Shown here in pieces: positions 11,318-45,197 of a stretch of DNA of 64,000 nt (positions within the stretch are counted from its first letter, which is position 1; the number at the start of each line of letters is the position of its first letter). The notes under the pieces are model-generated. The model had not been told where the DNA came from. It was given only the letters and a program-made list of their open reading frames with translations, and did not search any database. A program made the translations under genes and the position numbers. The stretch covers positions 95,526 to 159,525 of the forward strand of contig CAYYTK010000006.1 of assembly GCA_964474695.1 (NCBI GenBank). Direction: 5' to 3'. The DNA is from an uncultured Anaerolineales bacterium. Its GTDB lineage: Bacteria; Chloroflexota; Anaerolineae; CG2-30-64-16.

Positions 11318-11366
11318 CTCGGGTCACAAACCTGGTTTCTCGGAGAAACCAGGTTTGTGACCCGAG
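11318..11366. repeat. perfect 24-bp-arm palindrome (family C, core ACAAACCTGGTTTCTC)
   Basis: CTCGGGTCACAAACCTGGTTTCTC-G-GAGAAACCAGGTTTGTGACCCGAG. It ends 12 nt before the lgt ATG. Confidence 0.9.
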
Positions 11367-11377
11367 AAAGGCATTTC

Positions 11378-12121
11378 ATGCTTCCAATCATCCAGCTTGG
11401 TCCTGTCTCGCTTCCCACCTATCCGCTTGCGCTGGTGTTGGCCGCCTGGTTGGCGCTGGAAGTCAGCGCGCGGGTTGCGCGGCGGCTGGAACGGCAAGGC
11501 GCTCGCGCGATCGGGCCGGATCACGTTTACAACGCGGGTTTGTCTGCGTTGGTGGCGGGCTTTGTTGTAGCCCGCTTCGGCCATGTGATCGCCTATTGGC
11601 CCGCCTATCGTGCGCAGCCGTTGGAGATCTTCGGATTCAACACGCGGGCCTTTCTGCTCTGGCCGGGGATTGCCGGAGCGCTCCTTATGTTCGGCTGGTA
11701 TGTCTATCGGCATCGGCTGCCCCTGGCTGCCATGCTGGAGGCCTTGGCTCCGGGACTGTTAGTGGGTGTCGCGATCGCTCAGGCAGGCGCCTTCCTGGCC
11801 GGCCATAATCCCGGCGCGCCGGCCGACCTGCCCTGGGCGGTGAACTTCTGGGGTGTGGCGCGACATCCGGCTCTGCTCTACGAGGCGCTGGCCGCGCTCG
11901 CCGTGTTGTTAGTGATTGGGCTCTTGCTCCGCCGCCGCACGCCTGCCGGCATGATCGCCTGGACTGCACTGCTGGGCTATGGCCTGAGTCGTTGGCTCCT
12001 GGAGCCGTTCCGCGCCGAGAGCGCGGTGACCTTCGGCGGCTTGCGAGCGGCGCAGGTGTTGGGGTTGGCGGCGGCGTTGATCGCGCTTTGGGCGCTGCGG
12101 TCGCTGAGCAGGAAGCTGTGA
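11378..12121 (+). CDS. lgt: prolipoprotein diacylglyceryl transferase
   Basis: Polytopic membrane protein with the Lgt signature region ...RHPALLYEALAALAVL (compare E. coli RHPSQLYE). Start set at MLPIIQLGPVSL; the ORF-track upstream extension overlaps tlpA and is rejected. Confidence 0.75.
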   Translation: MLPIIQLGPVSLPTYPLALVLAAWLALEVSARVARRLERQGARAIGPDHVYNAGLSALVAGFVVARFGHVIAYWPAYRAQPLEIFGFNTRAFLLWPGIAGALLMFGWYVYRHRLPLAAMLEALAPGLLVGVAIAQAGAFLAGHNPGAPADLPWAVNFWGVARHPALLYEALAALAVLLVIGLLLRRRTPAGMIAWTALLGYGLSRWLLEPFRAESAVTFGGLRAAQVLGLAAALIALWALRSLSRKL

Positions 12122-12142
12122 GCACCGGCGAAACGCGCGGGC

Positions 12143-13537
12143 TCAGGCGGCCGGCAGGCTATCACGATATCTTTCAGGCGTGTCAATATCCTGGAGGATT
12201 TCGGGTGAGGGCCAATCCACCCAGGCGATCTCATCCGCATGGGCCTGGATGATGGGCCGCGCGCCGACGTCACCCTGGAGCCGCTCGAACTCCCTGAAAG
12301 TGGCAGCGTCGAAAAGGACGGGATTGCCGCGCTGGCCGTTCCAACGTGGGGCAACGACCGGCGCCAACGTCTCGCGATGGCGCTGGATTAGTGCCGAAAG
12401 CAGCTCAGGTGAGATCCCAGGCTGATCCGCCAGCAAAAAGAGGACGGTCTTGCATTCCCTCCCCCTCTCCTGAACCGATAGTTCAGGAGAGGGGGTCAGG
12501 GGGGTGAGGACCGTCCTGAGTCCCGCTTGCACGCTGCGGCTCTGCCCGGCCGCCCAATCGGGCGCCCGCACGATCTGCGCATTCAGGCCGGCAAGCGCCG
12601 CACACACCTGCTCCGCCCCGGCGCCTACCGTGACCACCACCCGTTCGACGTCCGGGCAGGCCAGCGCCTGTTCGGCGACGTGCGCCACCAGCTGCCGGCC
12701 GCGCCAGGGCAGCACCTGTTTCAGCGCGCCGAAACGCTTCGCCTCGCCCGCGGCCAGGACGACCGCGCCGGTCCGCCCCCAAACTTCGCGCACCGGATCG
12801 TCCGCTTGCGCCGCGCCGATCAGGACAGTATCAATCCGGTCGTGTTGCAGCAGCCGGCGGGAAATCTCGCGCGCGGCGACCAGGCTGGCTTCATCTTCGG
12901 CTTTGTTCAGGAATGGAATCAGCCGCGCGCCGGGGGGTGCGCCTTTCGCACCGCCCTCCGGGTGCGCCAACACCGCGGCAACCAGGCCGGGAGTCACGGG
13001 GTCGCCCAGGGCCGCGCCGGTCAGCGCCGCGATCCGTTCGGGGCGATGGACGTGTTCGGCGTCCAGCGGCCGCCCCAGCACATCCAGCCCCATCATCGGG
13101 ACGACGATGGTTGCGCTGGTCGGAATCACCGGTTCGTGTGCTGCGGGCGCCTTGAACGGCAGCCGCCGCGAGCCATCTGCTTCCATCAGCAAAGCATCGA
13201 CTGCAGGGTGCGCCGCGACGCGGTCCAGCAGCTCGGGCGGCACACCTTGCACCTTGTCCTGCTCCACAACGGTGCCGCCCGCGATCAGCACATGGCCGTG
13301 CTCGGCGAGCGTGCTTCCCAGTTGCGCCAGCAGTGCACCTTCCCCTTCCAGGATCAAACGCGCCGGCGCGCGGGCCATCTGCGTCACGAAGATCTTGGTG
13401 GTCATCGTCGTAACCACGCGTTGCCCCGCCGACCGCAATTCTTCGGCCAGCCGGAACATAGTCGTGGTCTTGCCGCCGCCGCCGGTGAAGGCGACGACTT
13501 CTTTGGGGCGGATACGCAAAGCAGTCACAAGCAGCAT
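12143..13537 (-). CDS. fusion protein: YqeC-like selenium-dependent molybdenum-hydroxylase accessory protein (N-terminal) + MocA/YgfJ-like molybdenum cofactor cytidylyltransferase (C-terminal)
   Basis: N-terminal VVAFTGGGGKTT P-loop typical of the YqeC family. C-terminal VVLAAGEAKRFG...K NTP-transferase domain as in MocA/YgfJ. Start chosen at MLLVTALRIRPKEVV (13537). Starting at 13660 would overlap the next gene. Confidence 0.7.
   Translation of the reverse strand: MLLVTALRIRPKEVVAFTGGGGKTTTMFRLAEELRSAGQRVVTTMTTKIFVTQMARAPARLILEGEGALLAQLGSTLAEHGHVLIAGGTVVEQDKVQGVPPELLDRVAAHPAVDALLMEADGSRRLPFKAPAAHEPVIPTSATIVVPMMGLDVLGRPLDAEHVHRPERIAALTGAALGDPVTPGLVAAVLAHPEGGAKGAPPGARLIPFLNKAEDEASLVAAREISRRLLQHDRIDTVLIGAAQADDPVREVWGRTGAVVLAAGEAKRFGALKQVLPWRGRQLVAHVAEQALACPDVERVVVTVGAGAEQVCAALAGLNAQIVRAPDWAAGQSRSVQAGLRTVLTPLTPSPELSVQERGRECKTVLFLLADQPGISPELLSALIQRHRETLAPVVAPRWNGQRGNPVLFDAATFREFERLQGDVGARPIIQAHADEIAWVDWPSPEILQDIDTPERYRDSLPAA
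12461..12495. repeat. perfect 15-bp inverted repeat (CCCCCTCTCCTGAAC-CGATA-GTTCAGGAGAGGGGG) inside the MocA-like domain coding sequence
   Basis: Read directly. On the minus strand it encodes a ...PSPELSVQERGRE... loop in frame. Confidence 0.85.
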
Positions 13538-13560
13538 GGTCTCACTCTTACCGGCGGCAA

Positions 13561-14997
13561 CTACATCCAGCGCAGCCCTTTCGGGTAATGGCTCTTCAGC
13601 CGGTCGCCCGTGCGCTTGCCCCAGCCGATAGGATAGCCATCCACGGCTATCAAGGTCCACCCCGCTTCCCCAGGGCTGGCCGGTGATTCTCCGCGCAAGT
13701 AGGCCGCCAGCTCCCGCACTTCCGCCGGCAGACTCGACACGCGGCGAGCATCACCCACGGATAGACCGAGCGCGAGCGCATGGCTTGGCTCAAAGCGGTG
13801 GCCTGCCTGCTGAGCACCCTTCACGGTCCCCAGCCACCAGCCGGGATGCAGGAAGCGCAGCCCGGTGAGATCGGGCAGTCCTTGCGGCAGCGCATAGAGA
13901 TAGGAGCCGACGAGGGCCAGCCGTTCCGCAGCGGGCAGGCTGTTCAAATTTGCTGCGCAAAACGCCGCGAAGGCCTCTGCAACGAGCTTCGGAGGTCCTG
14001 CCGGCTTCCAGGGCTTCACTGTTGACGTCGCGGCGTGCATGCCGGCGGTCGATGGATCCGGTGATCGGTCCAACACGGCGACAAAGTGGCCTTCCCCCGG
14101 TCCTACATGCGGCCACAGACGGACGGGGCGGGCCAGGGCAGGCGTAGAGTCTTCCCCTGACGGAATCCAATCGGGTCTGCCGGGCGAGAACCCGGGGTGA
14201 CGGGGTGGCGCGACCAACTGGAAGTCGGCATGGCGCGCCAGAAAGCGCGCCACCGTGACCTCGTTTTCTTCCGGGTTAAATGTGCACGTCGAATACACCA
14301 GCCGTCCGCCGGGGCGCACCATCCGGGCGGCTTGTTCCAGGATGCCGGACTGGCGCAGCGCGCAGCCGTGTATCAGTTCGGGCGCCCACTCGCGCCGCGC
14401 AGCCTCGCCCTTGCGCATCATTCCCTCGCCTGAGCAGGGCGCATCGACTAAAACGCGGTCAAAGAAGCCGGGGAAGCGTTGGGCAAGTCGCTCCGGCGTC
14501 TCATTGGTGATGGCCGCGTTGCGCGCGCCCCAGCGCTCCAAATTCCCGGCCAACTCCCAAGCGCGCTTGGGAATCACCTCGTTGGCAATCAGCAGGCCTT
14601 GCCCCTGCATCAACGCGGCGATGTGCGTCGCCTTGCCGCCGGGCGCGGCCGCCAGGTCCAAAACACGCTCACCGGGTCGCGGCGCCAGCAACTCCGCCAC
14701 GGCCATCGCGGATGGGTCCTGGAGATAGTAGAGTCCGGCGGCATGATAAGGATGCTTGCCCGGTGCGACTTCACCGGCAAGCACGAAGCCGGCCGGACAC
14801 CAGGACACGGGCGCAGCGGCATCCATGCCGAACGCCAGGCCTGCGAGGCCGCGGAAGTCATCCACGCCGATTTTCAGCGTATTGACGCGCAAACCAACGC
14901 TCGGCGGCGCGTCAAAACTGGCGCTGAACGAAGCGTACTCATCGCCCAAAAGATCGCGCATCCGTGCCAAAAAGCCCAACGGCAACTCAAGACTCAT
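13561..14997 (-). CDS. RsmB/RsmF-family 16S rRNA m5C methyltransferase (NOL1/NOP2/Sun)
   Basis: SAM-binding LDLAAAPGGKATHIA. Catalytic D-A-P-C-S-G (VLVDAPCSGEG) and TCTxNPEENE motifs. Start at MSLELPLGF. Confidence 0.8.
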   Translation of the reverse strand: MSLELPLGFLARMRDLLGDEYASFSASFDAPPSVGLRVNTLKIGVDDFRGLAGLAFGMDAAAPVSWCPAGFVLAGEVAPGKHPYHAAGLYYLQDPSAMAVAELLAPRPGERVLDLAAAPGGKATHIAALMQGQGLLIANEVIPKRAWELAGNLERWGARNAAITNETPERLAQRFPGFFDRVLVDAPCSGEGMMRKGEAARREWAPELIHGCALRQSGILEQAARMVRPGGRLVYSTCTFNPEENEVTVARFLARHADFQLVAPPRHPGFSPGRPDWIPSGEDSTPALARPVRLWPHVGPGEGHFVAVLDRSPDPSTAGMHAATSTVKPWKPAGPPKLVAEAFAAFCAANLNSLPAAERLALVGSYLYALPQGLPDLTGLRFLHPGWWLGTVKGAQQAGHRFEPSHALALGLSVGDARRVSSLPAEVRELAAYLRGESPASPGEAGWTLIAVDGYPIGWGKRTGDRLKSHYPKGLRWM

Positions 14998-15028
14998 GTG
15001 ATCACGCACCACGCACCACGCACCACAC

Positions 15029-16741
15029 CTACAACCCCATCGCGCACCCGTCCGCCCGCATATCACTCCCGCCGCACAGCACACCCGTCTCCGGGTCTCG
15101 TAGGATGATCTGTCCGCGGCCGAAAAGTGCGCGCTCGTGGCCGGCCACGACATCGACAGGATGTCCCATCTCGGCCAGGGCCGTCACCGTCGCGGCCGGG
15201 ATGCCCTCTTCCAGGCTCACGCGGCCCGCGGCTGTGCCGCTGTTGATACAAAAGCGCGGTCGGTCAAGCGCTGCCTGTGGATCAAGCCGGTCGTCAGCCA
15301 GCGCCAGCACCACCTGCGCGTGGCCCTGGGGCTGCATAAAGCCGCCCATGACACCGAAGGAGGCGATAAGTAGATTGGTAGATTGGGAATTGATGGAACC
15401 GTCCACCAATCTACCATCTACCACTCCACCGTCCCGGGTGATCATCGCTGGGATGATCGTGTGGTAGGGCCGCTTGCCGGGCGCGAGCGCGTTCGGGTGC
15501 CCCGGTTCCAGGCTGAAATTGTGACCGCGGTTCTGCAGGCTGAAGCCCCAGCCGGACGGCACGATGCCGGTGCCGAATCCCATATAGTTGCTGTTGATGA
15601 AGGAGCAGGCATTGCCTTGTTCGTCCACGACGCTGAAGTAGACCGTATCGGAGCCGGCGACCGGGGCGCCGCGACGTTGGTCGAGGGTGGTGTGTGCCGG
15701 ATCGATCAGCCCTCGACGTTCGGCGGCATACTCCTTCGAGAGTAACTGGTCGATTGGTATGTCGGCAAACTGGGGATCGGCGACATACCAGCGCGTATCG
15801 GCGAAGGCCAGGCGCATCGCCTCGATCTCAAGGTGTAGTCGTTCGGGTGCCAGGGGTTCGCGGCCGGCGAGGTCGAAGCCCTCCAGGATGTTCAGCGCCA
15901 ACAGCGCGGCCAACCCCTGGCCGTTCGGCGGGCATTCCCAGATGCGCAAGCCGCGGTAGGTTGTGCTGATCGGCTCGTCCCAGGTGCTGGTGTGCGCCGC
16001 CAGATCCTCGACCGTCAGGCAGCCGCCCGCGGCCTGTACGGCGGCTGCGATCGCTTCGGCGATGCGCCCCTGGTAATAGGCGGCCTTGCCGCCCTCGGCC
16101 ACGGCGCGCAGGGTGCGGGCCAGGCCGGGATTCCGAAACACCTCGCCGGGCTTGGGCGCGCGGCCATCGATCGTCAGTTCCCGGCCGCCGGCTGCCTGGC
16201 GCAACTGCCGTTCGGCCCCGCGCGCCCAGAAGTAAGCGGTGATGGGTGCGACCGGGAAGCCCTCCTCTGCCAGGCGAATGGCCGGCGCGAGGACGCGGCT
16301 CAGCGGCAGGCGGCCGTGGCGCTCGACCAGGTCGCACCAGCCCGCGCACGCACCGGGCACGGTGATCGTGTAAGGATGGTAGGGGGGCAGTTCCACGCCG
16401 CACCCGGCGGCGCCGAATCCCTCGCGTTGCAGCCGTTCCAATGTCAGCGCGGCCGGCGCGCGGCCCGATCCGTTCAGCGCGGTGATCTTCCCGTTGGCGG
16501 CCTCCGGCGTTACCGGCGGAGCAGCCTCGTAGAACAGCGCAAAGCAGTCGCCGCCGATGCCGGTGGAGGTGGGCTCGGTCACGTTCAGGGCCGCGGCGGT
16601 CGCGACCGCGGCATCGGCCGCGTTGCCGCCTGCGGCCAGGATCTCCAGCCCGGCAGCCGCAGCTAACGGCTGCGATGCCGCCACCATGCCGCGGCGGCCG
16701 TAGACGGGCGAGCGGCGGGACGCGAAAATCAGCTCAGACAT
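15029..16741 (-). CDS. ggt: gamma-glutamyltransferase
   Basis: Typical GGT large- and small-subunit motifs. Carries an extra ~20-codon in-frame segment (VVDGRLVDGSINSQSTNL) made of family-B octamers. Confidence 0.85.
   Translation of the reverse strand: MSELIFASRRSPVYGRRGMVAASQPLAAAAGLEILAAGGNAADAAVATAAALNVTEPTSTGIGGDCFALFYEAAPPVTPEAANGKITALNGSGRAPAALTLERLQREGFGAAGCGVELPPYHPYTITVPGACAGWCDLVERHGRLPLSRVLAPAIRLAEEGFPVAPITAYFWARGAERQLRQAAGGRELTIDGRAPKPGEVFRNPGLARTLRAVAEGGKAAYYQGRIAEAIAAAVQAAGGCLTVEDLAAHTSTWDEPISTTYRGLRIWECPPNGQGLAALLALNILEGFDLAGREPLAPERLHLEIEAMRLAFADTRWYVADPQFADIPIDQLLSKEYAAERRGLIDPAHTTLDQRRGAPVAGSDTVYFSVVDEQGNACSFINSNYMGFGTGIVPSGWGFSLQNRGHNFSLEPGHPNALAPGKRPYHTIIPAMITRDGGVVDGRLVDGSINSQSTNLLIASFGVMGGFMQPQGHAQVVLALADDRLDPQAALDRPRFCINSGTAAGRVSLEEGIPAATVTALAEMGHPVDVVAGHERALFGRGQIILRDPETGVLCGGSDMRADGCAMGL
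15371..15430. repeat. family-B (TAGATTGG / CCAATCTA) composite inverted repeat lying in frame inside ggt
   Basis: TAGATTGGTAGATTGG ... CCACCAATCTACCATCTACCA. The two halves are reverse complements of each other. Confidence 0.85.
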
Positions 16742-16750
16742 GTGAAAGCC

Positions 16751-18349
16751 TTACGGTTGAGGCACGTGGTAGATGCGTACTTCATATCCGCCATCGGTGA
16801 AGACCTTGACTTCCTCAAAGGTGCTGAAGAACGTTTCGTAACGTGCGATCGCAGGCGCGAACTGGACCGGGTCGGCATAGAAACGCCGGAACATGGTCTC
16901 GCTGAATACCAGGTAGTCGTACCCCTCGGTGACGTACCACTCTGCCGGGTGATCGTTCAGCTTGTAAAAGCCCTGGACCACGAATTTCTGCGGGTCGATC
17001 CAGGGGGAATACGACTCGATGCCAATGCGCGATCCCGCTGGCAGGTTGTGCTCGATCCACTCGCGAGCCGTGTCGAGGCTATCCGGCTGCATGAGGCGCA
17101 CCGTATCGCGGACGGTCCCGACCAGGGGAAAGATCAGTGCGACGACAAGAAGGGCAGCCGCGGCGTTTAGCTGGATGCCGGTGTAGCCAGAGGCCCGGGA
17201 CGGCAGAAGGCTCACAAGCCAGTAGGCAGCCAGGACCGCGAAAAGGGGCAGAAGCGGCAGCGCCGTGCGTTCGAAGTGGACGGCGAATGCGCTGATGAAG
17301 AGCAGATAACTCAGAGATGTTATGGCAATTAAGAGCGCGCCGCGCGAACGCCGGAAAATGCCCCAAATGATCCCGGCGGCTGCCAGCAGCAGCATCGGAC
17401 CTTCGGTCCGCCAGAAAAAACTCAGGTACCATGCCAAAGAGTTTCCGGCGTTCCCGGCATGGCCTCCGGTGTAATGGCGAACGTCGATCAGAGCGCCCTT
17501 GAGGAAGGTTTGGTAATCCAGTACGGCGAATGGTGTCGTCGCCACGAAGAGAATGAGGCTGACAACCCCGGCAGCGTACAGCCGCCAATCCTTGATCCCG
17601 CGCCAGCCCGAACGAAGAAAGTGCGCCAGGACGATTGCCAGGGCGAAGACCGCGGCGTTGTACTTGGTCCCTGCGGCCAGGCCGAGCGCCGCGCCAGCCA
17701 GGATGTAGTGGCGTGTTCGTCCCTCCTGGCAGACGCGCCACGCTGCCCAGGTGACAAGGGTTGTGAAAAAGGCGAGCGGTCCATCCGGGATCAGGAACCG
17801 GCTGTTGGCGACCAGGGTTGGCGACAAAGCTGCCCACAGACCCGCCAGCACGCCGCCAAAGGTAGAATGGGTGATCCGGCGTGCGAGATCGAAAGTCAGC
17901 GCCACCGTGGCGACGCCTAACACCGCGGAAAAGCAGCGTCCGCCGAGGAACAGCATCGGTAGGGTTGTCTTGCCGGACCCGCCGATGAGCAGCACGGGCT
18001 CCGCTAGATCGGCCAGGCTGCCGAATACGCCGAACAGCCGACCGATACCGTAGTACACCAGGTAGCCGAAGGCATTGATATAGTAGTAGAGCGATGGGTA
18101 AATGAAATCGTGTGGATTCGGATCGCCCGTCTTGACCATCTTTAAGACCTGGACGACCCAGAACGGCTCATCGGGATGCTCGACGTAAGGCAGCCCGAAA
18201 TTGATCCCCCACAGCCGCAGGCCAAGCGCAACGACCAGCACGCCCGCCAGGCACCACGACGCGCAGCGTGTCATGGGGTCGAGAAACGATCGAGCGACTG
18301 GCATCGCTGAAAAACGGTATCCGGTGTAGCCCCCAGCCCGGTCTGCCAT
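16751..18349 (-). CDS. glycosyltransferase family 39 (ArnT/PMT-like) polytopic membrane protein
   Basis: Many TM segments with the GT39/PMT-like N-terminal loop region. AAGGAGAT lies 5 nt upstream of ATG 18349. Confidence 0.65.
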   Translation of the reverse strand: MADRAGGYTGYRFSAMPVARSFLDPMTRCASWCLAGVLVVALGLRLWGINFGLPYVEHPDEPFWVVQVLKMVKTGDPNPHDFIYPSLYYYINAFGYLVYYGIGRLFGVFGSLADLAEPVLLIGGSGKTTLPMLFLGGRCFSAVLGVATVALTFDLARRITHSTFGGVLAGLWAALSPTLVANSRFLIPDGPLAFFTTLVTWAAWRVCQEGRTRHYILAGAALGLAAGTKYNAAVFALAIVLAHFLRSGWRGIKDWRLYAAGVVSLILFVATTPFAVLDYQTFLKGALIDVRHYTGGHAGNAGNSLAWYLSFFWRTEGPMLLLAAAGIIWGIFRRSRGALLIAITSLSYLLFISAFAVHFERTALPLLPLFAVLAAYWLVSLLPSRASGYTGIQLNAAAALLVVALIFPLVGTVRDTVRLMQPDSLDTAREWIEHNLPAGSRIGIESYSPWIDPQKFVVQGFYKLNDHPAEWYVTEGYDYLVFSETMFRRFYADPVQFAPAIARYETFFSTFEEVKVFTDGGYEVRIYHVPQP

Positions 18350-18367
18350 ATCTCCTTCCTTACTACA

Positions 18368-18967: not shown

Positions 18968-18972
18968 CGCCG

Positions 18973-19572: not shown

Positions 19573-19613
19573 ATGGCGCCTCCGGAGGTAAGTTTAGGTG
19601 GGCGTTATCATAA

Positions 19614-23633: not shown

Positions 23634-24965
23634 TCATCCAACCCGCTTCCACACGTTCACCGCCAGTTCCCGGGCCTTCGCCATGATGGCCTCCTCATCC
23701 AGGGTGACGAGCTTTTTGTCGGCCATCAGCACCTTGCCGGAGGCAATGGTGTGCGTGACGTGCGCGCCGTCGACGCCGAAGAGGATCTGCCACGGCAGGT
23801 TGCCCGCGCTCAGCGGCGTGGGCGGAGCGTAGTCCAGCAGCATGATATCGGCGAACGCGCCGGGAGCCAACGCCCCCACCGGTTTCGGGAAGAACCGCTT
23901 TGCCAGGTTGGCGTTGTTGGGATAGGCCATTTGCAGCACGACGTCTCCCGGCATGGCCTGGGGGTTCTGAGTGTTGTGCTTGTGCACCAGGTACGCGGTC
24001 TTCATCTCATCGAACATGCAGTTGGAGAAGCCGTCGTTGCCCAGCGCCACCGGGATGCCGCGGGCCAGCATGCCGGCCACATCGGGCAGTCCGACGGCGT
24101 TGTTCATGTTGGAGCGCGGTTGATGCGTCACCAGCGTCCCGGTCTCGCGCAGGATATCCTTCTCGTATTCGTCCAGGTGCACGCAGTGCACGGCGATCGA
24201 CTTGGGGCCGAGGATGCCCAGCCGGTTCAGGCGCTCCACCACGCGCTGGTTGTGCTGGCGCAGGCTGAGGTCCTGGTCTGCTTTGCCCTCAGCGACATGG
24301 ATGTGGTAGCCGGTGTCCAGCCCTTCGGCTGCGGCAACGCTGGCCTCCAGCGTCTCGTCCGAGCAGGTGAACGCGGCGTGCAACCCAAAGGATGCGCTCA
24401 GTTGTGGATCTTTTTCCTTGCGGCAGCGCTTGAGGAAGCGGACGTTTTCCGCGATGCCGGCCCTGGCGCCATCCATCCCGTTGCGGTCGGTAACCTCGTA
24501 ACACAAGCTGGCGCGCAACCCTGTGTCCTTCACCGCATCCGCGATGATGTCCAGGCTGCCGTCGATCGCGTTGGGGCTGGCGTGATGGTCGATCAGCATC
24601 GTGCAGCCGTGGCGCACCGCATCCACCAGGCAGATCAGCGCGCTGTAGCGGATATCATCCCACAACAGGGCCAGATCCAGCTTCCACCACAGTTTCTCGA
24701 GGATTTCCATGAAGTTGGTGGCGGGCGTGCCGGGGATCGCCATGCCGCGCGAAAACGCGCCGTAGAAGTGCGTGTGCCCACAGAGCATTCCGGGCATCAC
24801 GATCTTGCCGCGCGCGTCCAGGCGTTGTGCCCCCGGATACTTGGCTGCCAGCTCCGCCGTCGTGCCGACCTCGACGATGGTGTCGCCTTCCCAGTAAACC
24901 GCACCGTCCGTGAACTCGCGATTCGTCTTGTCAAAGGTGAAAATGTGTCCGTTGGTGATGAGCAT
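23634..24965 (-). CDS. ssnA: SsnA-like metal-dependent aminohydrolase (chlorohydrolase/cytosine-deaminase superfamily)
   Basis: MLITNGHIFTFDK... with HTHFY, HHASP, HVAEG and SNMNN motifs matching E. coli SsnA along its length. ATG 24965 has an AGGAGA RBS. Confidence 0.8.
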   Translation of the reverse strand: MLITNGHIFTFDKTNREFTDGAVYWEGDTIVEVGTTAELAAKYPGAQRLDARGKIVMPGMLCGHTHFYGAFSRGMAIPGTPATNFMEILEKLWWKLDLALLWDDIRYSALICLVDAVRHGCTMLIDHHASPNAIDGSLDIIADAVKDTGLRASLCYEVTDRNGMDGARAGIAENVRFLKRCRKEKDPQLSASFGLHAAFTCSDETLEASVAAAEGLDTGYHIHVAEGKADQDLSLRQHNQRVVERLNRLGILGPKSIAVHCVHLDEYEKDILRETGTLVTHQPRSNMNNAVGLPDVAGMLARGIPVALGNDGFSNCMFDEMKTAYLVHKHNTQNPQAMPGDVVLQMAYPNNANLAKRFFPKPVGALAPGAFADIMLLDYAPPTPLSAGNLPWQILFGVDGAHVTHTIASGKVLMADKKLVTLDEEAIMAKARELAVNVWKRVG

Positions 24966-24988
24966 GGTTGTTCTCCTGATTTCTTTGC

Positions 24989-25039
24989 TCCACAAACCAG
25001 GTGGCGACCTTCGGTCGTCCGAAAAACCTGGTTTGTGGA
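24989..25039. repeat. family-C hairpin (TCCACAAACCAGGT ... ACCTGGTTTGTGGA) with a nested inner stem
   Basis: 14-bp arms. Sits between the ygfK-like stop (25050) and the ssnA RBS. Confidence 0.85.
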
Positions 25040-25049
25040 ACAAGTTTCC

Positions 25050-28000
25050 TTACAACACCAGATGCGGCAGCGTCTCGGTCACGCCCTTCAGCAGCACCGC
25101 CATCTCGGCGGCGTCGCGCAGGGAGAGGGAACCGGTGAACGGGCCCTGGGCCGCCATCGCCTTGACCTCGAACGCCGGGGTCAGGGTGACGCGCGCCTCC
25201 GGGCACTCGTAGACCAGGTGGCCGTTCTCGCGCGCCAGGCTCGATTCGCGGCCCATGTCGCGGTGACGTATGATGCCATCCGTGATCCTGTAGGCGTTGT
25301 GGTTCTCGGCCAGAAAGTCCTTCTCGTTGAGGAACAACCGTGGCTTATCCAGCCAGGGCTGGCCGTGGTGCACGCAGAAGGTGGTGCAGTCACCGCACGC
25401 GTTGCAGAAGTCGTTGATGTTGACGATCTGCCGCTCCTGCCCGATGACGAAGCGTTCATAGCCGACAACGCGTAACGCAGATGGTTCAAGGATGCCAACT
25501 TTGGCCACATAGGCCAGCCGCGGCAGCATCACGTCCACGGGCCGCATCAGGAAGGTCTGATTCGCGCGGTTCGGGCAGACCTCGACGCACTTATCGCAGA
25601 AGGAGGTGCATTGCACACAGCGGGCTGCTTCGGTTTCCGCTTGCTCCCTGGTGAAGCTCAGGTCGATCAGGTCGAAGCTTTGGCGCAGCTCGATGGGCAG
25701 CATCTGGGTCTTCACCTGCGGCGCCTTGCGTGCCCGCACGTGCTTGGTCTTCACGATCTCTTCGGCGGAAAGCCTCGGCTTACCGGCCAGCGGTTGGCTG
25801 AACGGGAGGCCGAACTGCCAGCAGATCGACTCGGCCGCGCGGCGGCCGCCGGCGCATGCCGCGATGATGCTCTCCGGGCCGGCCTCGGCCGCGTCGCCGC
25901 CCGCATACACGCCGGGCACTCCGGTGCCGCCGCTGGCATGCTCGATCGCGATGCCGCCATCGCTGCACACCGTCACCAGGCTGCCGTCCAGGAGCCGGAA
26001 GTCGGGGTTTTGCCCCACGGCCACGATGACGGTGTCACACGGGATCTGGAACTCGCTGCCGGGGATAACCACCGGCTTGCGGCGGCCATCTGGCCCGGGC
26101 TCGCCCAGTTTATTGCGGGTGCACTCCAGCGCCACGACTTTGCCAGTCTCATCCCGCACCACGCGGGCCGGCGAAGTGAGTTCCAGCAACTCGTTGCCCT
26201 CTTCCAGCGCACCTTCGATCTCCTCCAGGCTGGCCGGCATCTCCTGGCGGGTGCGGCGATAGACGATCGTGGTGGGGTTCCCGGTGAGACGCTGCGAGGT
26301 GCGCACCGCGTCCATAGCGGTGTCGCCGCCTCCGATCACCAGCGCCTTCTTGCCCAGGTCGGGCCGCTCCCCGCGGCGGGCGCGATCGAGCAGGTTAAGC
26401 GCCGCGTACACGCCCGGGCCTTCGACGCCGGGGACGCGCAGCGGGGTGTCGCGTTGGAAACCCACCGCCACGTATACCGCATCGAAGCCCTGCTCGAGCA
26501 GCTTCTCCGGCGCCCCGGTGATGGGATGGTTCAGTTCGAGCTTCACACCCATCTTCAGGATGCGGTCGACGTCGCGCTGGATCGTGTCCCACGGCAGCCG
26601 GAACACCGGCACCATGCGCATCATGCCGGCGATGACGTCCTTGGCCTCGAAGATGGTCACATCGACGCCGTTCAGCGCCAGGTAGAACGCGGCCGACCAG
26701 CCGGATGGCCCGGAGCCGATCACCGCCACCTTCTTGCCCACCTTGTCTTGGGGGATCAGTGGCGCGACCGTGCCGTTCTCCTCGGCGTAGCGCTTCAACG
26801 CGCGGATCGCGACCGTTTCCTCGTAATCGTTGCGCACGCAGCGGGTCTGGCACAGGTGGTTGCACACGTAGCCGGTGACGCCGGGCAGCGGATTGCGGGC
26901 CAGGATGACCTCCAGCGCCTTGTCCGGGTCGCCTTCCTTGATCCACCAGTTGTACTCCGGCACATCCTGGCACACCGCGCACTGCTCCATACACGGCGCG
27001 GTGATGCAGTCCCACAGCCCCAGCCCCGACTTCACCTTGGGCAAGCCGTAGGGCACGTATTCTTTTTTCCACCGGTGATCAGTCAACGCGGCCGCGGCGG
27101 CTGCCTTGACATTATCGAGTTTGTTGGCGGAAAACTCAGCCAGGTCCTTTGCGCCTGCGGCTGCCATTGCGGCGCCCAGGTTCTCCAGCCACTGGCCGAA
27201 CCGGGCGTAGCCGCCGGGTTTCAGCAGGTCAGAGCAGGCGGTGATAGGCACCGGGCCGCACGATGCGATCGTGGCGATGTTCAACGCATCCGCGCCGGCC
27301 GAGTAGGAAACGCGCAGGTTTCCGTTGAACTCGTGGGCCAGTTTGTTGAACAGGTTCATGGTGACGGGGTAGAGCGCGCGGCCCGACATATACATCTCAT
27401 CGCCCGGCATCACCTGTTTGTGGTTGTGCATGGCCAGGGTGTTGCTCAGCTTCACGCCGAAGGCCAGCCCCTCCTGCGCCGCGACCTTCTGCATCCGGCC
27501 GATCAGCCCGACTGCCTTATCGTAGGCAATGTCGTGCTCGAACACCGAATCAGGGATGTAAATCTCATGGAAACCGAGCGCGTTATGCAGGATGTCGAGC
27601 ACCCGGTCTTTGCCCAAGAGCGTCGGGTTCATCTTAACAATAGTGTGCAGCCTGCGCTCGGTCAGCAGATACTCCGCGATGCGCTCGATCTCGTCAGGCG
27701 GGCAGCCGTGCATGGTGGAGAGGGTGATGCTGTTGGCGATTTGGTCGGGAATCTCGATATCGGAAAACTGTGGGAAGTCGCGGCGCAGGATGGCCTTGAT
27801 CTGGGCTACTTCCTCAGTCGCGTCCTCCATCTTTCTCATGAAGGTCTGCACCCGCGGGCTCTGAATCCCCTCCAGGTTATAGCCAACGCTCATATCGAAG
27901 ATGGTGCCCACCGGCGCGACGCCCTCCCAGCCTAACAGCCGGGGCAGGATATGCACCAGGGCCCACGCCACCACATATTCGTGCGCGGACTCTTCCAGCT

Positions 28001-29243: not shown

Positions 29244-29386
29244 TGGTAGACTGGTAACTTGGTACGTTGGTAGATTGGTGCTTGGTAGATTGGTAGGTGG
29301 TGTATTAGTTGCAGGTTCTCCGAGGCCCAGTTTCCCAACCTACCAATCTACCAATTTGCCAGTTCACCAGGTTACCAATCTACCAG
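29244..29386. repeat. family-B array: GGTAGATTGG-type units (left) facing CTACCAATC-type units (right) in a composite inverted repeat
   Basis: Read directly. Intergenic between the PLP-enzyme stop and the hydrolase start. The ORF-track entry 29153..29338 merely translates it. Confidence 0.85.
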
Positions 29387-34017: not shown

Positions 34018-34052
34018 GGTAGATTGGTAGATTGGTAAGTTGGCAAATTGGG
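34018..34052. repeat. family-B units (GGTAGATTGGTAGATTGGTAAGTTGG)
   Basis: Lies between the arcC start and the four-helix-bundle gene stop. Confidence 0.85.
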
Positions 34053-34546: not shown

Positions 34547-34735
34547 GGATTTGGTAGAATGATGACGAGGTAAATTGGTAACTTGGGAGCTGATACTGGC
34601 CCCCCAATTCACCAGGCCACCAATCTACCAATTACCAATCTACCAATCTACCAATCTACCAATTACCAATCTACCAATCTACCAATTACCAATCTACCAA
34701 TTTACCAATTACCAATCTACCAATTACCAATCTAC
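34547..34735. repeat. largest family-B array: about 15 tandem CCAATCTA / CCAATTA units preceded by inverted GGTA-ATTGG units
   Basis: Read directly. Sits between the carbamoyltransferase stop (34732) and the four-helix-bundle gene start. The ORF-track entry 34583..34792 merely translates it. Confidence 0.9.
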
Positions 34736-35718: not shown

Positions 35719-35730
35719 AGGATTCTCCTT

Positions 35731-36759: not shown

Positions 36760-36790
36760 GCCACAAAGGTTTTGTGATCACTGTAGGGGC

Positions 36791-36882: not shown

Positions 36883-36883
36883 G

Positions 36884-38104: not shown

Positions 38105-38167
38105 TCTTCCTCCCTGTGATTCTGACCTGGATGGTGTCAGTAGAACGAAATGAGTGTCGCTGCGCCT

Positions 38168-41295: not shown

Positions 41296-41785
41296 GTGTC
41301 ACCCCCTCTGCTGCCTCTGTGTTTCGGCGCTCGCGAGCCGTGACCTCGATCGCATCTACGATCTGTTGATAGCCCGTGCAGCGGCACAGGTTGCCGGCGA
41401 TTGCCTCGCGAATCTCTGTCCGATCGGGCGCGAGGGTGCGCGCCAGCAGCGCCTCACCCGCCAACACCATGCCGGGGATGCAATAACCGCATTGCACCGC
41501 GCCGTACTCGATGAAGTTTCGCTGCAAGTCATTGGGCCCGCCGTCTGCGCCCCGAATCCCCTCGATCGTCGTGACGTTGCGGCCGTGCGCCTGCGGCGCC
41601 AGCACCAGGCACGAGTTCACGAGCCGGCCGTCCAGGATCACCGAGCACGCGCCGCATTCGCCGACGCCACACCCTTCCTTGGTGCCAGTCAGATTCAGAT
41701 AGTCGCGCAGCAGATGGAGCAGGTTGATGTCGGTCGGCGCTTCCACGCTCACCGGGCTGCCGTTCAGCATAAACGAGATTTTCAT
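41288..41785 (-). CDS. [2Fe-2S]-binding small subunit (CoxS/XdhC-like)
   Basis: CGVGECGACSV and CGYCIPG...CRCTGY cysteine clusters. ATGA overlap with the FAD subunit stop. Confidence 0.85.
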   Translation of the reverse strand: MKISFMLNGSPVSVEAPTDINLLHLLRDYLNLTGTKEGCGVGECGACSVILDGRLVNSCLVLAPQAHGRNVTTIEGIRGADGGPNDLQRNFIEYGAVQCGYCIPGMVLAGEALLARTLAPDRTEIREAIAGNLCRCTGYQQIVDAIEVTARERRNTEAAEGVTHG

Positions 41786-42675
41786 GCCTCTTCTCCTTCT
41801 GTCCACGGCAAGCCGAACACCTGCAGCAACGCACGCGTCACCATCGCCAGCAGGGCCGGTTCCTTGAATTCGCTGGACCAGCGCTTCCCTGTCACCTTTG
41901 TCATTTCACTCACGGCCAGTTGCCCGGCGGCCTCGCACAGTGTGATGCTGGGCGTCTCGCCTACCAGGAGTTGTTCCACCGCCGTGAAGCGCCGGATTTG
42001 TGGTGTGGCCGAGCCTGGTGCCAGCCGCGCCTCGGCGATGCGCCCATCCGGGCCGACCCGGCCCAGCGCAGCCACGGTGAGGCGGGAGATGGCCATCGCG
42101 TTGCGCCGGCCCAGCTTGACAAAAACGCTGCGGCTGCCGGGCGCAGGAACACCATAGCTCAATGAGACCAGCAAGCCGCCCGGCGGGATTTGTGTCCGAT
42201 TGGGCCGGATGATCATCTCGGCCACTGGCCAGGTCAGCTCTCCGTTCGGCGTGAGGACCCGCGCTGCAGCATCGAGGCAGACCAGCGCCGGCAGCGAGTC
42301 CGCGCACGCGGCCGCATTCGCTACGTTGCCGCCCAAAGTACCCATATTGCGGATTTGGGTCGCGCCTACCGAGCGACACGCCTGCGCCAGCACCGGCGCT
42401 GTCTCGCAGACGACTGCGCTTTCGATGATCTCGCTGAAGGTGGCCGCCGCACCGATCACGACAGCACCATCCGAGCGCGCAATATGATGCAGCTCAGGAA
42501 TCTGCGTGATATCCACTACTCTATCCAAACCTGGTTTGGATAGAGTGCGCTCTTCTCGCAGCAGCAGCACCAGGTCGGTGCCGCCTGCCAACGGCCGGCT
42601 GCGCACCCCCGGTGCATTCAGCAGGGCGACCGCTTGCGGAATACTTTCTGCCCTCACGTAGCTAAATCGTTCCAT
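41782..42675 (-). CDS. FAD-binding medium subunit (CoxM/XdhB-like)
   Basis: PLAGGTDL FAD motif with the CO-dehydrogenase-flavoprotein C-terminal domain. Confidence 0.85.
   Translation of the reverse strand: MERFSYVRAESIPQAVALLNAPGVRSRPLAGGTDLVLLLREERTLSKPGLDRVVDITQIPELHHIARSDGAVVIGAAATFSEIIESAVVCETAPVLAQACRSVGATQIRNMGTLGGNVANAAACADSLPALVCLDAAARVLTPNGELTWPVAEMIIRPNRTQIPPGGLLVSLSYGVPAPGSRSVFVKLGRRNAMAISRLTVAALGRVGPDGRIAEARLAPGSATPQIRRFTAVEQLLVGETPSITLCEAAGQLAVSEMTKVTGKRWSSEFKEPALLAMVTRALLQVFGLPWTEGEEA
42517..42545. repeat. family-C-related 14-bp-arm palindrome (ACTCTATCCAAACC-T-GGTTTGGATAGAGT) inside the FAD-subunit CDS
   Basis: Read directly. Encodes KPGLDRV in frame. Shares the AAACCWGGTTT core with the intergenic copies. 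Confidence 0.8.
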
Positions 42676-43489
42676 CTAGGTTTCCCCCTTTGGTCCCCCC
42701 TGCCCCAATGGCCCCCCGGAGCGATCTGAAGGATTGCACGATCCGGCGGACGACTGTGTAGTTGTAGTCGCCGGTGACAAAATGATTGCGAAAAAGGGCG
42801 ATCGGCATGTCTGTTTCGGAAAACACGGTCTCGATCAGGTGCAGCACCGCCCCGCCTTCATCGATGCGCAAGCGTTCGGCCAGATCTCGATCGGCCGCAA
42901 TCGCATAGATGGCTGTGCGTGAGTAGGCGATCGGTAGGTTCGCCTGCCGGTAGAGGTGCTCCAACAGCGACCCTTCGTCGGCTGCCAGCAGCTCTGAATC
43001 TACCCGCTCTCGCGCAATCAACCCTTCGAGATAAGCCAACCGGCGGCCCTCGATGGCCTCAATCACACGTACTTGCACGACTTGCGAGCCCGTCGGTAGA
43101 TGGAGCGCAGCGGCTGTTGTTGCGTCGGCTTCAATCAGCTCCACTGAGCGCAGAACAACCTGCACCGTCGCGCCGGCCAGCTCCGCCACTGACCGAAAGC
43201 TGGCCAGCCGCTCCAGGCCGCCGGAGATGGTTCGGGATCGGGGTGTCACCAGGGTGCCCACCCCCTGCTTGCGGACGATAAGCCCGTCTTTTTCGAGGTG
43301 GCTCAGCGCTTCACGGATCGTTGACCGCGAGACACCCAACAGCGTGGCGAGGTCCGTCTCTGCGGGCAAGGGCTGGCCCGGCTCGTAGGCTCCATGTTCA
43401 AGCAATTCGTACAGCGCGTCGACAGCCTGGACGTAGAGGGGCCGCGTGTCCGCGCGTAACAAGCGCAGGCTATGCTCGGCTTGGGACAT
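42662..43489 (-). CDS. GntR-family regulator, HutC/UTRA-type effector domain
   Basis: LPAETDLATLLGVSRSTIREAL wHTH with an UTRA-like C-terminus. Confidence 0.8.
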   Translation of the reverse strand: MSQAEHSLRLLRADTRPLYVQAVDALYELLEHGAYEPGQPLPAETDLATLLGVSRSTIREALSHLEKDGLIVRKQGVGTLVTPRSRTISGGLERLASFRSVAELAGATVQVVLRSVELIEADATTAAALHLPTGSQVVQVRVIEAIEGRRLAYLEGLIARERVDSELLAADEGSLLEHLYRQANLPIAYSRTAIYAIAADRDLAERLRIDEGGAVLHLIETVFSETDMPIALFRNHFVTGDYNYTVVRRIVQSFRSLRGAIGAGGTKGGNLDGTI

Positions 43490-45131
43490 CGGCGGCTGCC
43501 TCGTTTTTGTTGGCGGGCGCGGCAGCTACGGTTTCGGCGGCATCCGTCGTTGCCGCGACAGTCCCCAATGCTTCGTGCATGGGCACACCGGCCATCATCA
43601 GACCGAGTTGCTCGATCGTAGCCTCATCCCGCTTGACGATGCCGATGATCTGCCCTTCATAAATAACCGCAATCCGATCGGAGAGCGCCCGCACCTCATC
43701 CAGGTCCTCGGAGATCAGCAGCACGGCTTTACCCTCCGCTCGCTGCTGGAGCAGGCGCTGGTGGATATACTCCGTGGCGCCGATATCCACCCCGCGCGAG
43801 GGTTGGGCCGCAATCAGCACCTTGGGCTTCCGTGAAAGCTCGCGGGCCATGATGGCCTTCTGAATATTGCCGCCGGAAAGGTTCTTAATGGGGGTTTCCA
43901 GGCTTGGCGTTTTCACGGCGAATTCGCTGATCAGCGATTTGGCATGCGCGGCCATTTTCGCGAAATCCAAAAAGACCCCGCGTGTGAACTGGGGCGCGGC
44001 ATGGTCCAGCAGGAAGAGATTCTCCTGCACTGAAAACTCCTTAATGGCGCCGTCGCGCATGCGCTCCTCAGGAATAAAGGCTTGTCCGGCCTTCAAGCGC
44101 CCTTGCACTGAGGCGTGCGTCAGGTCCTTGCCATCTACTGAAATGACGCCGGCCGTTACCTTGCGCATACCGCCCAGGCAGCCCGCTAACTCGCGTTGCC
44201 CATTGCCTGATACGCCCGCCATGCCCAGGATCTCACCGGCGTGAATCTCCAGGTCGATGCCGCGCAGCGCCTCTACGCCGCGATCGCCCATCGCGTGCAG
44301 CCCCTTAATCTGCAGCAGCGGGCGGCCCATTTCTTGCGGGGGCGGCGCAAAGCGTTTGATCTCGCGACCGACCATCATGGTTGCCAACTGATCGCGCGTG
44401 ACATCCTTGGTCGCGACCTCGCCGCTGTACCTGCCGTCGCGCAACACCGTGATGCGATCGCTGATCGCCAGGACTTCGTAAAGCTTGTGCGAGATGAAGA
44501 CCAGCCCATGCCCTTCTGCCACCATGCGTCTGAACGTCGCAAACAGGTCCTTGACTTCTTGCGGGGTCAGCACGGCGGTCGGTTCATCCAGGATAATCAT
44601 CCCTGCCCCGCGGTAAAGCGCCTTAAGGATTTCCACGCGTTGTTGCTCACCAACTGAAAGCTGCCAGATGTAGGCGTTCGGTTCAACCTTGAGGCCATAC
44701 TCTTCGGCGAGCTGGCGCACGCGCTTCCCCACCCGGTCGAGGTCCAACAGCGGCTCGCGCGAGGAGGGCAATCCCAGCGCCACATTTTCCGTCACTGTCA
44801 GCGTGGGCACGAGCATGAAGTGCTGGTGGATCATGCCGATGCCGGCGCGGATCGCGTCGGCCGGCGAATTGAACTCAACGGACTTGCCATCGATGAGGAT
44901 TTGGCCCTCATCGGGCTTGTAGAGGCCAAAGAGCTGGCGCATCAGGGTGCTTTTGCCCGCGCCGTTTTCGCCCAGCAGGGCATGCACTTCGCCGGCGTTG
45001 ACGTCGAAACAGACCTTATCATTCGCGAGGACGCCCGGGAAGCGCTTGACAATGTTGCACATCTCAATGCGCTGGATGCGGCGGTAACCGTGGCTATCGT
45101 TGAGCGTCTCAGGTTGAGATAACTTCGCCAT
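43470..45131 (-). CDS. ABC transporter ATP-binding protein with duplicated ATPase domains (BMP/nucleoside-type)
   Basis: Two sets of Walker A (GENGAGKST), LSGG/LSVGEQQ signature and Walker B motifs. ATG 45131 has an AGGAGAG RBS. The ORF-track TTG extension is rejected. Confidence 0.85.
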   Translation of the reverse strand: MAKLSQPETLNDSHGYRRIQRIEMCNIVKRFPGVLANDKVCFDVNAGEVHALLGENGAGKSTLMRQLFGLYKPDEGQILIDGKSVEFNSPADAIRAGIGMIHQHFMLVPTLTVTENVALGLPSSREPLLDLDRVGKRVRQLAEEYGLKVEPNAYIWQLSVGEQQRVEILKALYRGAGMIILDEPTAVLTPQEVKDLFATFRRMVAEGHGLVFISHKLYEVLAISDRITVLRDGRYSGEVATKDVTRDQLATMMVGREIKRFAPPPQEMGRPLLQIKGLHAMGDRGVEALRGIDLEIHAGEILGMAGVSGNGQRELAGCLGGMRKVTAGVISVDGKDLTHASVQGRLKAGQAFIPEERMRDGAIKEFSVQENLFLLDHAAPQFTRGVFLDFAKMAAHAKSLISEFAVKTPSLETPIKNLSGGNIQKAIMARELSRKPKVLIAAQPSRGVDIGATEYIHQRLLQQRAEGKAVLLISEDLDEVRALSDRIAVIYEGQIIGIVKRDEATIEQLGLMMAGVPMHEALGTVAATTDAAETVAAAPANKNEAAADVPSRA

Positions 45132-45150
45132 CTTTCTCTCCTGGCCTTTG

Positions 45151-45197
45151 TGTTGCGACAAACCAGGTTTCGCGGAGAAACCTGGTTTGTCGCAACA
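45151..45197. repeat. family-C perfect 21-bp-arm hairpin (TGTTGCGACAAACCAGGTTTC-GCGGA-GAAACCTGGTTTGTCGCAACA)
   Basis: Read directly. Lies between the SBP stop (45213) and the ATPase RBS. Confidence 0.9.

Follow-up and report, generated by a model that had tools for sequence, protein, structure and literature searches.

Intra-operon hairpins of an Anaerolineales genome segment as probable copies of a short dispersed palindromic repeat

Results

Hairpins between operon genes of the window

The window analyzed here is a 64,000-nt stretch of DNA from an uncultured Anaerolineales bacterium of the phylum Chloroflexota (GenBank assembly GCA_964474695.1, contig CAYYTK010000006.1, positions 95,526 to 159,525), in which long hairpins built from the 11-nt palindrome AAACCWGGTTT lie between consecutive genes. 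Three such hairpins separate an AhpC/TSA redoxin gene from lgt, a ygfK-like gene from ssnA, and the gene of a Bmp-type binding protein from that of an ABC ATPase, and a fourth palindrome lies inside the coding sequence of a CoxM-like FAD subunit. The identities of the flanking genes at all palindromes were checked with Pfam. The features, in window coordinates, are the following.

11318..11366, plus strand: copy 1, a 49-nt hairpin with 24-nt arms that are 100% complementary; outer stem CTCGGGTCA, core CAAACCTGGTTTC-TCGGA-GAAACCAGGTTTG, outer stem TGACCCGAG; the rarer T..A form
11304 to 11378, copy 1 junction: AhpC/TSA redoxin stop at 11304-11306, 11 nt, hairpin, 11 nt, lgt ATG at 11378
11307..11317, plus strand: the 11-nt segment 5' of the copy 1 hairpin, CGGCATCCAAG, likewise missing from the empty sites of relatives
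24985..25043, minus strand: copy 2, a hairpin with 18-nt arms that are 94% complementary; arms ACAAACCAGGT... and ...AAACCTGGTTTGT plus outer stem TTGCTCC/GGAACAA; one arm truncated and the loop expanded
25003..25021, minus strand: mini-hairpin nested in the loop of copy 2, in mRNA sense GG-CGACC-GAA-GGUCG-CC
25052 to 24965, copy 2 junction, minus strand: ygfK-like stop at 25050-25052, 6 nt, hairpin, 19 nt, ssnA ATG at 24965
45151..45197, minus strand: copy 3, a 47-nt hairpin with 21-nt arms that are 100% complementary; outer stem TGTTGCGA, core CAAACCAGGTTTC-GCGGA-GAAACCTGGTTTG, outer stem TCGCAACA; the common A..T form
45215 to 45131, copy 3 junction, minus strand: Bmp-type binding-protein stop at 45213-45215, 15 nt, hairpin, 19 nt, ABC ATPase ATG at 45131
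42518..42546, minus strand: solo-core palindrome in the coding sequence of the CoxM-like FAD subunit, with 14-nt arms that are 100% complementary

All four palindromes had been recorded in a first-pass annotation of the window, essentially at these positions. Copy 2 is present, but it spans 24985-25043 with 18-nt arms and not 24989-25039 with 14-bp arms, and the fourth palindrome, which is also present, had been placed one nucleotide off. The annotation had further taken the 15-mer ACAAACCWGGTTTGT as a contiguous core shared by the hairpins. Instead, each hairpin holds the 11-nt sub-palindrome AAACCWGGTTT twice, once in either arm, and is symmetric about the loop (5 nt, expanded in copy 2) that separates the two. 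The 11-mer occurs six times in the window against 0.01 expected occurrences, and none of 100 dinucleotide shuffles reached six, which bears out the premise that the motif exceeds what composition predicts. No further site was found in the window with one mismatch allowed, and a profile search of the window detected no decayed copies.

The predicted RNA folds are very stable, with energies of -47.9 kcal/mol for copy 1 (z = -7.7), -39.0 kcal/mol for copy 2 (z = -5.1), -45.9 kcal/mol for copy 3 (z = -7.4) and -30.6 kcal/mol for the fourth palindrome; the z scores of all four range from -5.1 to -7.7. In the predicted folds of the window hairpins, the downstream Shine-Dalgarno sequences are unpaired. 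As the hairpins begin 6-15 nt after stop codons, they could be read as ordinary intrinsic (Rho-independent) terminators or attenuators. However, the window hairpins lack the combination of GC-rich hairpin and U-tract that defines such terminators: T-runs are missing behind all three, whose tails read AAAGGCATTTC, AGAAATCAGG, and CACAAAGGCC, and a terminator scan left copy 1 unflagged. Moreover, the next gene in the same direction starts 11-19 nt later, and copies of the element also reside in essential genes, which makes a terminator origin highly improbable.

A dispersed family with a conserved core

The family was scanned for with the pattern CAAACCWGGT-N(2-32)-AAACCWGGTTTG, using one genome per species, which yielded at least 107 loci. 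The consensus, hosts and gene contexts of the family reported here and below are those among the matches listed. They define a consensus unit of ~33 nt, A-CAAACCAGGTTTCT-NNN-AGAAACCTGGTTTG-T, and ~90 of the listed loci are canonical copies that share a 31-nt span. Positions left free by the scan pattern are also kept (TTCT..AGAA), and 91 of 101 copies have A as the central W of the 5' arm and T as that of the 3' arm. Neither a hairpin nor a dyad binding site requires this A..T polarity, which therefore speaks for descent from a common source by copying and against convergence. The orientation of the loop is unbiased, with CGG in 10 copies and CCG in 9.

According to record titles, the hosts are mostly Chloroflexota (Anaerolineae, Caldilineae, and Chloroflexia). 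Homologs of the window's own Lgt and SsnA, where named, likewise belong to Chloroflexi or Anaerolineae. Several metagenome-assembled genomes (MAGs) give at least 6-25 loci each, and H66_683 (GCA_034433275.1) and GFS_4015 at least 15-25 each; GCA_964513075.1 and JAYTNY01 are also rich in the element. Canonical copies were also present under titles that name candidate division KSB1, Candidatus Vecturithrix (Moduliflexota), a Melioribacteraceae MAG (Ignavibacteriota), Okeania (Cyanobacteria), and a MAG titled Roseobacter sp. GFS_4015; the listed matches include a few cyanobacterial ones (Okeania L055 and Calothrix L103). In addition, the element occurs on seven IMG/VR viral contigs, none of which carries an obvious autonomous version of it.

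Some copies are embedded in, or have taken up, further structure. In Caldilineaceae BC1.69, a 14-Mb MAG, the element lies in the middle of a ~95-nt imperfect-hairpin repeat (L065 912-1006, L087, L090, and L093) whose copies are ~95% identical and which represents a longer derivative of the family. The possibility that this repeat is a coding element was considered and dismissed, as it is merely a longer imperfect hairpin. At three other loci, a 15-nt mini-hairpin, GCGCCTNAGAAGGCG, is nested in the element loop, in both orientations (L054 2399-2443, L064 5469-5512, and L086 7011-7054). The mini-hairpin nested in window copy 2 is analogous to these, with a different sequence. The occurrence of the 15-nt mini-hairpin at the three loci suggests a second, even smaller insertion element targeting hairpin loops.

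Comparison of the window with Rfam 15 gave no matches at gathering thresholds, and at E-values up to 10 only generic long-hairpin (miRNA precursor) models appeared, far under their thresholds. Likewise, the motif was undescribed in a full-text literature search, whose coverage leaves out many subscription papers; the search returned only papers on primers, on general repetitive extragenic palindromic (REP) sequences, on Rickettsia palindromic elements (RPEs), and on mitochondrial palindromes.

Position relative to genes

As the element contains no stop codon in any of the six frames, naive lists of open reading frames (ORFs) read through it, and genes in the fetched loci were therefore called by heuristic GC-phase scoring. 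By these calls, 52 of ~109 copies lie between tandem genes, 18 between convergent genes, 4 between divergent genes, and ~27 within coding sequences. The distance from the upstream stop codon to the hairpin base has a median of 19 nt (interquartile range 11-34, n = 74), whereas that from the hairpin base to the next start on the same strand has a median of 75 nt (interquartile range 26-145, n = 44). What the copies consistently keep to is the 3' end of a gene and not the ribosome-binding site. The window copies are typical in their distance from the stop codon (6-15 nt), and they lie close to a ribosome-binding site because they were inserted into very short operon spacers. The first-pass annotation was correct in placing all three intergenic copies between consecutive co-directional genes; they end 11-19 nt before the next ATG. 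A positional bias, as it anticipated, also exists across the family, although it is directed toward the upstream stop and not, as had been assumed, toward the next start.

These distances bear on the reading of the hairpins as dedicated cis-regulatory RNA structures that evolved in place for coupling, access to the ribosome-binding site, or processing. Their location 11-19 nt from the next ATG between co-directional genes and their very stable predicted folds are in line with it, as is the binding-protein/ATPase junction, where nearly all orthologous spacers have a hairpin after the stop, suggesting selection. However, the distance to the next start is unconserved, the same sequence occurs between convergent genes, where 18 copies have no downstream ribosome-binding site at all, and it recurs within pheT, priA, and smc. 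The Shine-Dalgarno sequences are left unsequestered in the predicted folds, the stems are essentially free of G·U pairs, the loop has no preferred orientation, and four syntenic relatives lack the insertion at AhpC/TSA-lgt, their spacer there being 12 nt. The earlier suggestion that the placement 5' of the ribosome-binding site reflects coupling or translational control thus finds no support as an account of why these sequences are present, and regulators evolved in place are an unlikely explanation of the hairpins.

The 11-mer is also a perfect dyad, and three of the four sites lie in a neighborhood of xanthine-dehydrogenase-like, ssnA/ygfK and nucleoside-transporter genes that includes a GntR/UTRA gene. 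The palindromes might hence be operators for a dimeric transcription factor, with the GntR/HutC regulator at 42662-43489 as candidate. Against this stand the location of copy 1 in an unrelated operon, the position of the sites between stop and start codons inside operons instead of at promoters, and the depletion of the family between divergent genes. The same element is found within pheT, priA, and smc in many phyla, close relatives have the same operons without the motif, and factor binding requires neither the strong A..T polarity nor the perfectly paired variable outer stems. Operators are, in our judgment, an extremely improbable explanation.

Empty and alternative sites in relatives

Four relatives with syntenic PriA-AhpC/TSA-Lgt-YqeC loci (L196-L199, 74-76% Lgt identity), one of which belongs to an element-rich MAG, have a hairpin-free spacer of 12 nt, TAA-ATAAGGAAATCC-ATG, between the AhpC/TSA gene and lgt. 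The corresponding spacer of the window measures 71 nt, meaning that 59 nt net have been added upstream of the retained Shine-Dalgarno sequence AAAGGCATTTC-ATG; the added block consists of 11 nt and the 49-nt hairpin. No direct target duplication was seen when the filled site was compared with the empty one. With a 12-nt spacer in the relatives, the AhpC/TSA-lgt copy is most simply a tolerated insertion. The outer stem of copy 1 was also considered as a remnant of a pre-existing hairpin or as an inverted target duplication, and both were rejected, as the empty site is dissimilar to it and palindrome-free. Upstream in the same locus, the PriA ORF assigned by synteny (7870-10716) encodes 948 aa, compared with 889 aa in its L198 ortholog; profile and peptide scans of this ORF found no relic of the element.

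The other two junctions are occupied differently in relatives. The ygfK-ssnA spacers of L204 and L205 (88-89% SsnA identity) contain other hairpins, and AAACCWGGTTT is absent from them. Among 65 orthologous binding-protein/ATPase junctions from metagenomes, almost all have a hairpin right after the binding-protein stop, with an unrelated sequence, implying that selection for a hairpin at this position is real. The closest relative at this junction (L109/L110, 91% ATPase identity) carries an inverted heptamer array instead of copy 3, with inverted GGTTGAA-type arrays at ~2790-2960 of the L109 spacer. The copy at the binding-protein/ATPase junction may therefore fill a role served by unrelated hairpins in relatives. 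Stabilization of mRNA, one of the functions offered by the first-pass annotation, is accordingly plausible as a side effect or a co-opted role of the hairpins.

Altogether, 415 kb of relatives contained one double-arm copy and one solo core, whereas the 64 kb of the window hold three copies. This distribution, patchy among close relatives, corresponds to a lineage-specific expansion.

Copies within coding sequences

Pfam domains are found on both sides of the element in pheT (L006), smc (L018), a CHAT protein (L041), the priA gene of Okeania (L055), a PTPS-related membrane protein (L104), and a Wzy_C protein with two copies (L047). In an alignment with the Thermus thermophilus enzyme, the insert in PheT faces an 11-residue gap. 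Sixty close PheT homologs present one and the same loop in three states, namely intact (KPGFSEKPGL), reduced to a decayed relic (such as VPGTSEVPGT or AEIPGL), or empty, and independent insertions are found at two further sites of PheT in other frames. The KPGFSEKPGL frame dominates the in-gene copies (~15 of 27), which is consistent with selection for a tolerated Pro/Gly-rich loop. Two close homologs of the Chloroflexota PheT and Lgt proteins (P0062 and P0223) are source-labeled as "Nitrososphaerales archaeon," probably because of contigs binned to the wrong genome.

The in-gene palindrome of the window is smaller. At 42518-42546, a single core, AAA CCA GGT TTG, appears as an in-frame 12-nt insertion encoding KPGL, and both flanks have been rewritten to ACTCTATCC and GGATAGAGT, which pair perfectly. 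The insert-free orthologs in L109, L118, and L117 (64-73% identity) read GAT TTG TGC|GAC CGG GTG (D L C D R V), whereas the window reads ACT CTA TCC AAA CCA GGT TTG GAT AGA GTA. The Asp-Arg-Val beside KPGL is thus retained through the codons GAT, AGA, and GTA, where the orthologs use GC-rich ones. PDB homologs of the FAD subunit likewise show a gap where the window carries the KPGL insert. In 0.8 Mb of family loci, this is the sole solo core with long perfect arms, and a similar solo core centers a hairpin 3' of a binding-protein gene in L152. The fourth palindrome is very probably a solo-core insertion of the same kind as the hairpins, four codons long, that was subsequently palindromized.

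Outer stems and growth of the palindromes

Beyond the core, many copies continue to pair. At least 6 extra perfect pairs were found in 38 of 101 listed copies, with a peak at 7-9, compared with ~0.2 copies expected from shuffled flank pairings. When 79 copies were aligned together with 12 nt of flanking sequence at either end, 81% of them were seen to form the first variable pair, with AU, CG, GC, and UA similarly frequent, and pairing falls to background ~7-8 bp out. The covariation score is 0.247 versus 0.101 in shuffles, and none of 500 shuffles reached it. The inner stem of these copies shows two-sided changes only, C-G having become U-A in 12 copies with no one-sided change. The outer stems of oriented copies contain 156 Watson-Crick pairs, 1 G·U, and 2 A·C; the 1 versus 2 mismatches are too few for a test of RNA-level selection by their bias relative to transcription. 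Such perfect pairing without wobble intermediates points to a DNA-templated origin of the stems and not to RNA-level selection.

The orthologous pheT insertions allow the same copy to be compared between lineages. The outer stem is GGCGTCTGAC / GTCAGACGCC (10 bp) in L006 and ACGGCTGAC / GTCAGCCGT (9 bp plus three extra nucleotides) in L202, and it comprises 2 bp only in L200 and L201. As these orthologous copies differ in their outer stems, the arms grew after insertion, and did so separately in different lineages. The lengths of outer stems in in-gene copies (6, 7, 7, 7, 9, and 11) show no three-base periodicity.

Growth of this kind would also be expected if the palindromes were immobile and had arisen independently at CCWGG seeds through replication or repair errors, such as template switching near Dcm/Vsr-type sites, and the solo cores at 42518-42546 and in L152 show that a single AAACCWGGTTT can center a long perfect palindrome. 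An independent origin nevertheless leaves unexplained why one and the same 31-33-nt unit, including its A..T polarity and TTCT..AGAA, occurs at ~100 loci in several phyla, and why net insertions of 59 nt and 12 nt are seen relative to empty orthologous sites. We consider it very improbable.

Other repeats of the window

A second repeat family in the window consists of tandem arrays of the octamer TGGTAGAT/ACCAATCT, with up to 15 copies, which are intergenic and sometimes form inverted pairs. The inverted GGTTGAA-type arrays of the L109 binding-protein/ATPase spacer are analogous to them. The arrays lie at the following positions.

29244-29301: octamer array, with an inverted partner at 29338-29377
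34018-34051: octamer array
34619-34735: octamer array
49826-49875: octamer array
57260-57301: octamer array, with an inverted partner at 57331-57363

Hairpins of the form CCCCTCTCC...GGAGAGGGG, whose 3' arm is Shine-Dalgarno-like, stand directly after stop codons; one is found downstream of lgt in the window (12461-12495), and they also occur in many orthologous binding-protein/ATPase spacers of relatives (L121-L137). A further hairpin repeat, GGCTTTAGCCGG...CCGGCTGAAGCC, is common to intercistronic spacers of two related genomes (L205 ~95-145 and L119). Finally, a perfect 29-bp palindrome, AATCCTCAGACGTC-N-GACGTCTGAGGATT, is located at 48518-48546, apparently between divergent genes (minus-strand ORF 47185-48321 and plus-strand ORF 48625-49269), and could be an operator.

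Discussion

Our analysis indicates that the intergenic hairpins of the window are very probably copies of a short, non-autonomous, selfish palindromic repeat that is REP- or RPE-like, and not switches that evolved at ribosome-binding sites. The repeat is inserted, dispersed DNA of common descent that, once in place, decays or grows. The sites that tolerate it are those just 3' of stop codons in unidirectional or convergent spacers and in-frame positions within genes, and it is rare between divergent genes. The window hairpins are hence not to be read as evolved regulators of ribosome-binding sites.

A course of events can be proposed for such a repeat. It appears to have proliferated in particular Chloroflexota lineages, that of the window among them, with sporadic occurrence in other phyla, and new copies would need a trans-acting function that recognizes the AAACCWGGTTT arms. 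After insertion, the hairpin would grow outward as one arm serves at the DNA level as template for the other, through intrastrand template switching (quasipalindrome correction), and this self-templating would give each copy its own perfectly complementary outer stem. Once transcribed, a hairpin of -39 to -48 kcal/mol most likely obstructs 3'-to-5' exonucleases or serves as a partial decoupler. It would thereby favor the upstream cistron, as REP hairpins do in malE-malF, while the downstream Shine-Dalgarno sequence is left free. Such a stabilizing role is probably incidental at AhpC/TSA-lgt and possibly co-opted at the binding-protein/ATPase junction.

Several observations weigh against this interpretation or narrow it. 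The scan forced exact arms, so that copy numbers are lower bounds and divergence was outside its reach, and the context counts are approximate, being based on heuristic gene calls. The cross-phylum host assignments are MAG record titles only. At copy 1, the inserted unit is 59 nt and not 33, and its outer stem is unrelated to the target. The outer stems of GFS_4015 have conserved GC...GC(GGG) ends around a variable, always compensated N5, a pattern that neutral drift plus correction fits only loosely. At the binding-protein/ATPase junction, "purely selfish" is too strong a description. In addition, no mobilizing enzyme was found: the paired copies in L074, L059, L021, and L192 enclose housekeeping genes (ABC exporters, YceG, response regulators, prepilin peptidase, and glycosyltransferase), and a crude motif regex (HUH...YxxxNP) detected no HUH-Y1 ORF in the 1.32 Mb of fetched loci.

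A bolder scenario can be put forward only tentatively, and we hold it to be rather less likely than its opposite. It is conceivable that a 33-nt element with a 12-nt solo form, spread horizontally by a putative arm-recognizing enzyme, writes stop-free 11-codon loops (KPGFSEKPGL, TNQVSRRNLVC, and QTRFLGETWF) into essential genes across phyla and then enlarges itself, rewriting neighboring codons. If true, mobile DNA of this very small size would form a new class and would repeatedly supply proteins with new sequence. If the core is truly present in Chloroflexota, KSB1, Moduliflexota, Ignavibacteriota, and Cyanobacteria, this would point to horizontal transfer of the moving machinery, which, once identified, would define a new mobilization mechanism for elements far smaller than miniature inverted-repeat transposable elements (MITEs). 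For the annotation of Chloroflexota MAGs, the repeat explains odd long read-through ORFs, length-variable loops such as that of PheT, and intra-operon hairpins. The element also offers a natural system for template-switch palindromization, in which the growing arms even recode their neighbors via synonymous rare codons.

Among known systems, REP sequences and REPINs are the closest in form, both they and the element being palindromic multi-copy repeats of 20-40 nt (the element core is 31-33 nt, with 3 copies in the 64-kb window). The first-pass annotation had named a REP-like element among its options, and the multi-copy dispersal of the palindrome in many genomes agrees with this. A similar effect on RNA, protection of the upstream cistron, would be expected from the element and from REPs; Newbury et al. 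in 1987 reportedly found that a REP hairpin protects the upstream cistron in malE-malF. REP families are usually confined to one species or genus. A specific version of the explanation favored here is that the element is a REP/REPIN in the strict sense, mobilized by a RAYT (HUH-Y1) that recognizes the single-stranded hairpin. Its size, palindromic form, and multi-copy dispersal agree with this, and so does its location, as REPs are mainly found 3' of genes, where the neighboring ORFs are unidirectional or convergent, and occasionally in ORFs (PMC3733652). The nested architecture of two inverted, self-palindromic arms also mirrors REP doublets and REPINs, REP doublets forming a larger hairpin (PMC3116915). 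Although the element shares the location bias of REPs (52 tandem, 18 convergent, and 4 divergent copies), ~27 of ~109 listed copies lie in coding sequences, and this share of ~25%, about a quarter of copies being in frame in genes, is far above reports for REPs. Unlike REPs, the element has no GTAG/CGTC tag, the only conserved flank positions in 79 copies being A(-1) and T(+1); its core is identical across phyla, with hosts taken from record titles, and its outer stems are copy-specific and perfectly complementary. No RAYT-like ORF was detected by the crude regex in the 1.32 Mb of fetched loci or between paired copies. A strict REP is, on balance, rather unlikely.

RPEs, which are mentioned in the literature on REPs (PMC3733652), resemble the element in that each is translated into an additional stretch of peptide and later decays. 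The in-frame translated insertion that defines RPEs is present in the family, with examples in pheT, smc, priA, and the CHAT and Wzy_C genes, and insert-free orthologs exist; the window itself provides a single in-gene example, the 12-nt solo core at 42518-42546. RPEs are said to have been originally described by Ogata et al. in 2000. They measure 100-150 nt and occur in Rickettsia only, whereas the element is ~33 nt long (11 codons) or 12 nt in its solo form, lies for the most part between genes, and has its hosts in Chloroflexota and other phyla. Homology in size and sequence to RPE-1 to RPE-8 and a Rickettsia host are both lacking in a ~33-nt Chloroflexota element.

MITEs are characterized by terminal inverted repeats, a body of 70-300 bp, and a target-site duplication. 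In the element, the whole unit is the inverted repeat, and no duplication is seen at AhpC/TSA-lgt. Quasipalindrome correction by intrastrand template switching, reportedly a known mutational process since Ripley in 1982 and treated by Dutra and Lovett in 2006, accounts for the perfect arms, the missing G·U intermediates, and the outward growth that the arms of orthologous copies show in a lineage-specific manner. This is a process of mutation and not a family of elements; it explains the maturation of copies and not their spread.

The small dispersed repeats (SDRs) of cyanobacteria were reportedly described by Elhai et al. in 2008 as mobile, hairpin-forming repeats of 21-27 nt with no transposase identified, which are reportedly nested in one another and adjoin short tandem heptamer arrays. 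The element is like SDRs in having mini-hairpins nested in its loop and octamer arrays in the same genome, and it differs from them in size and main host phylum and apparently in sequence. The family is apparently an undescribed variant of small palindromic mobile repeats. It is set apart by a core that is conserved across phyla, by its frequent presence in frame within essential genes, by the mini-hairpins nested in it, and by growth after insertion.

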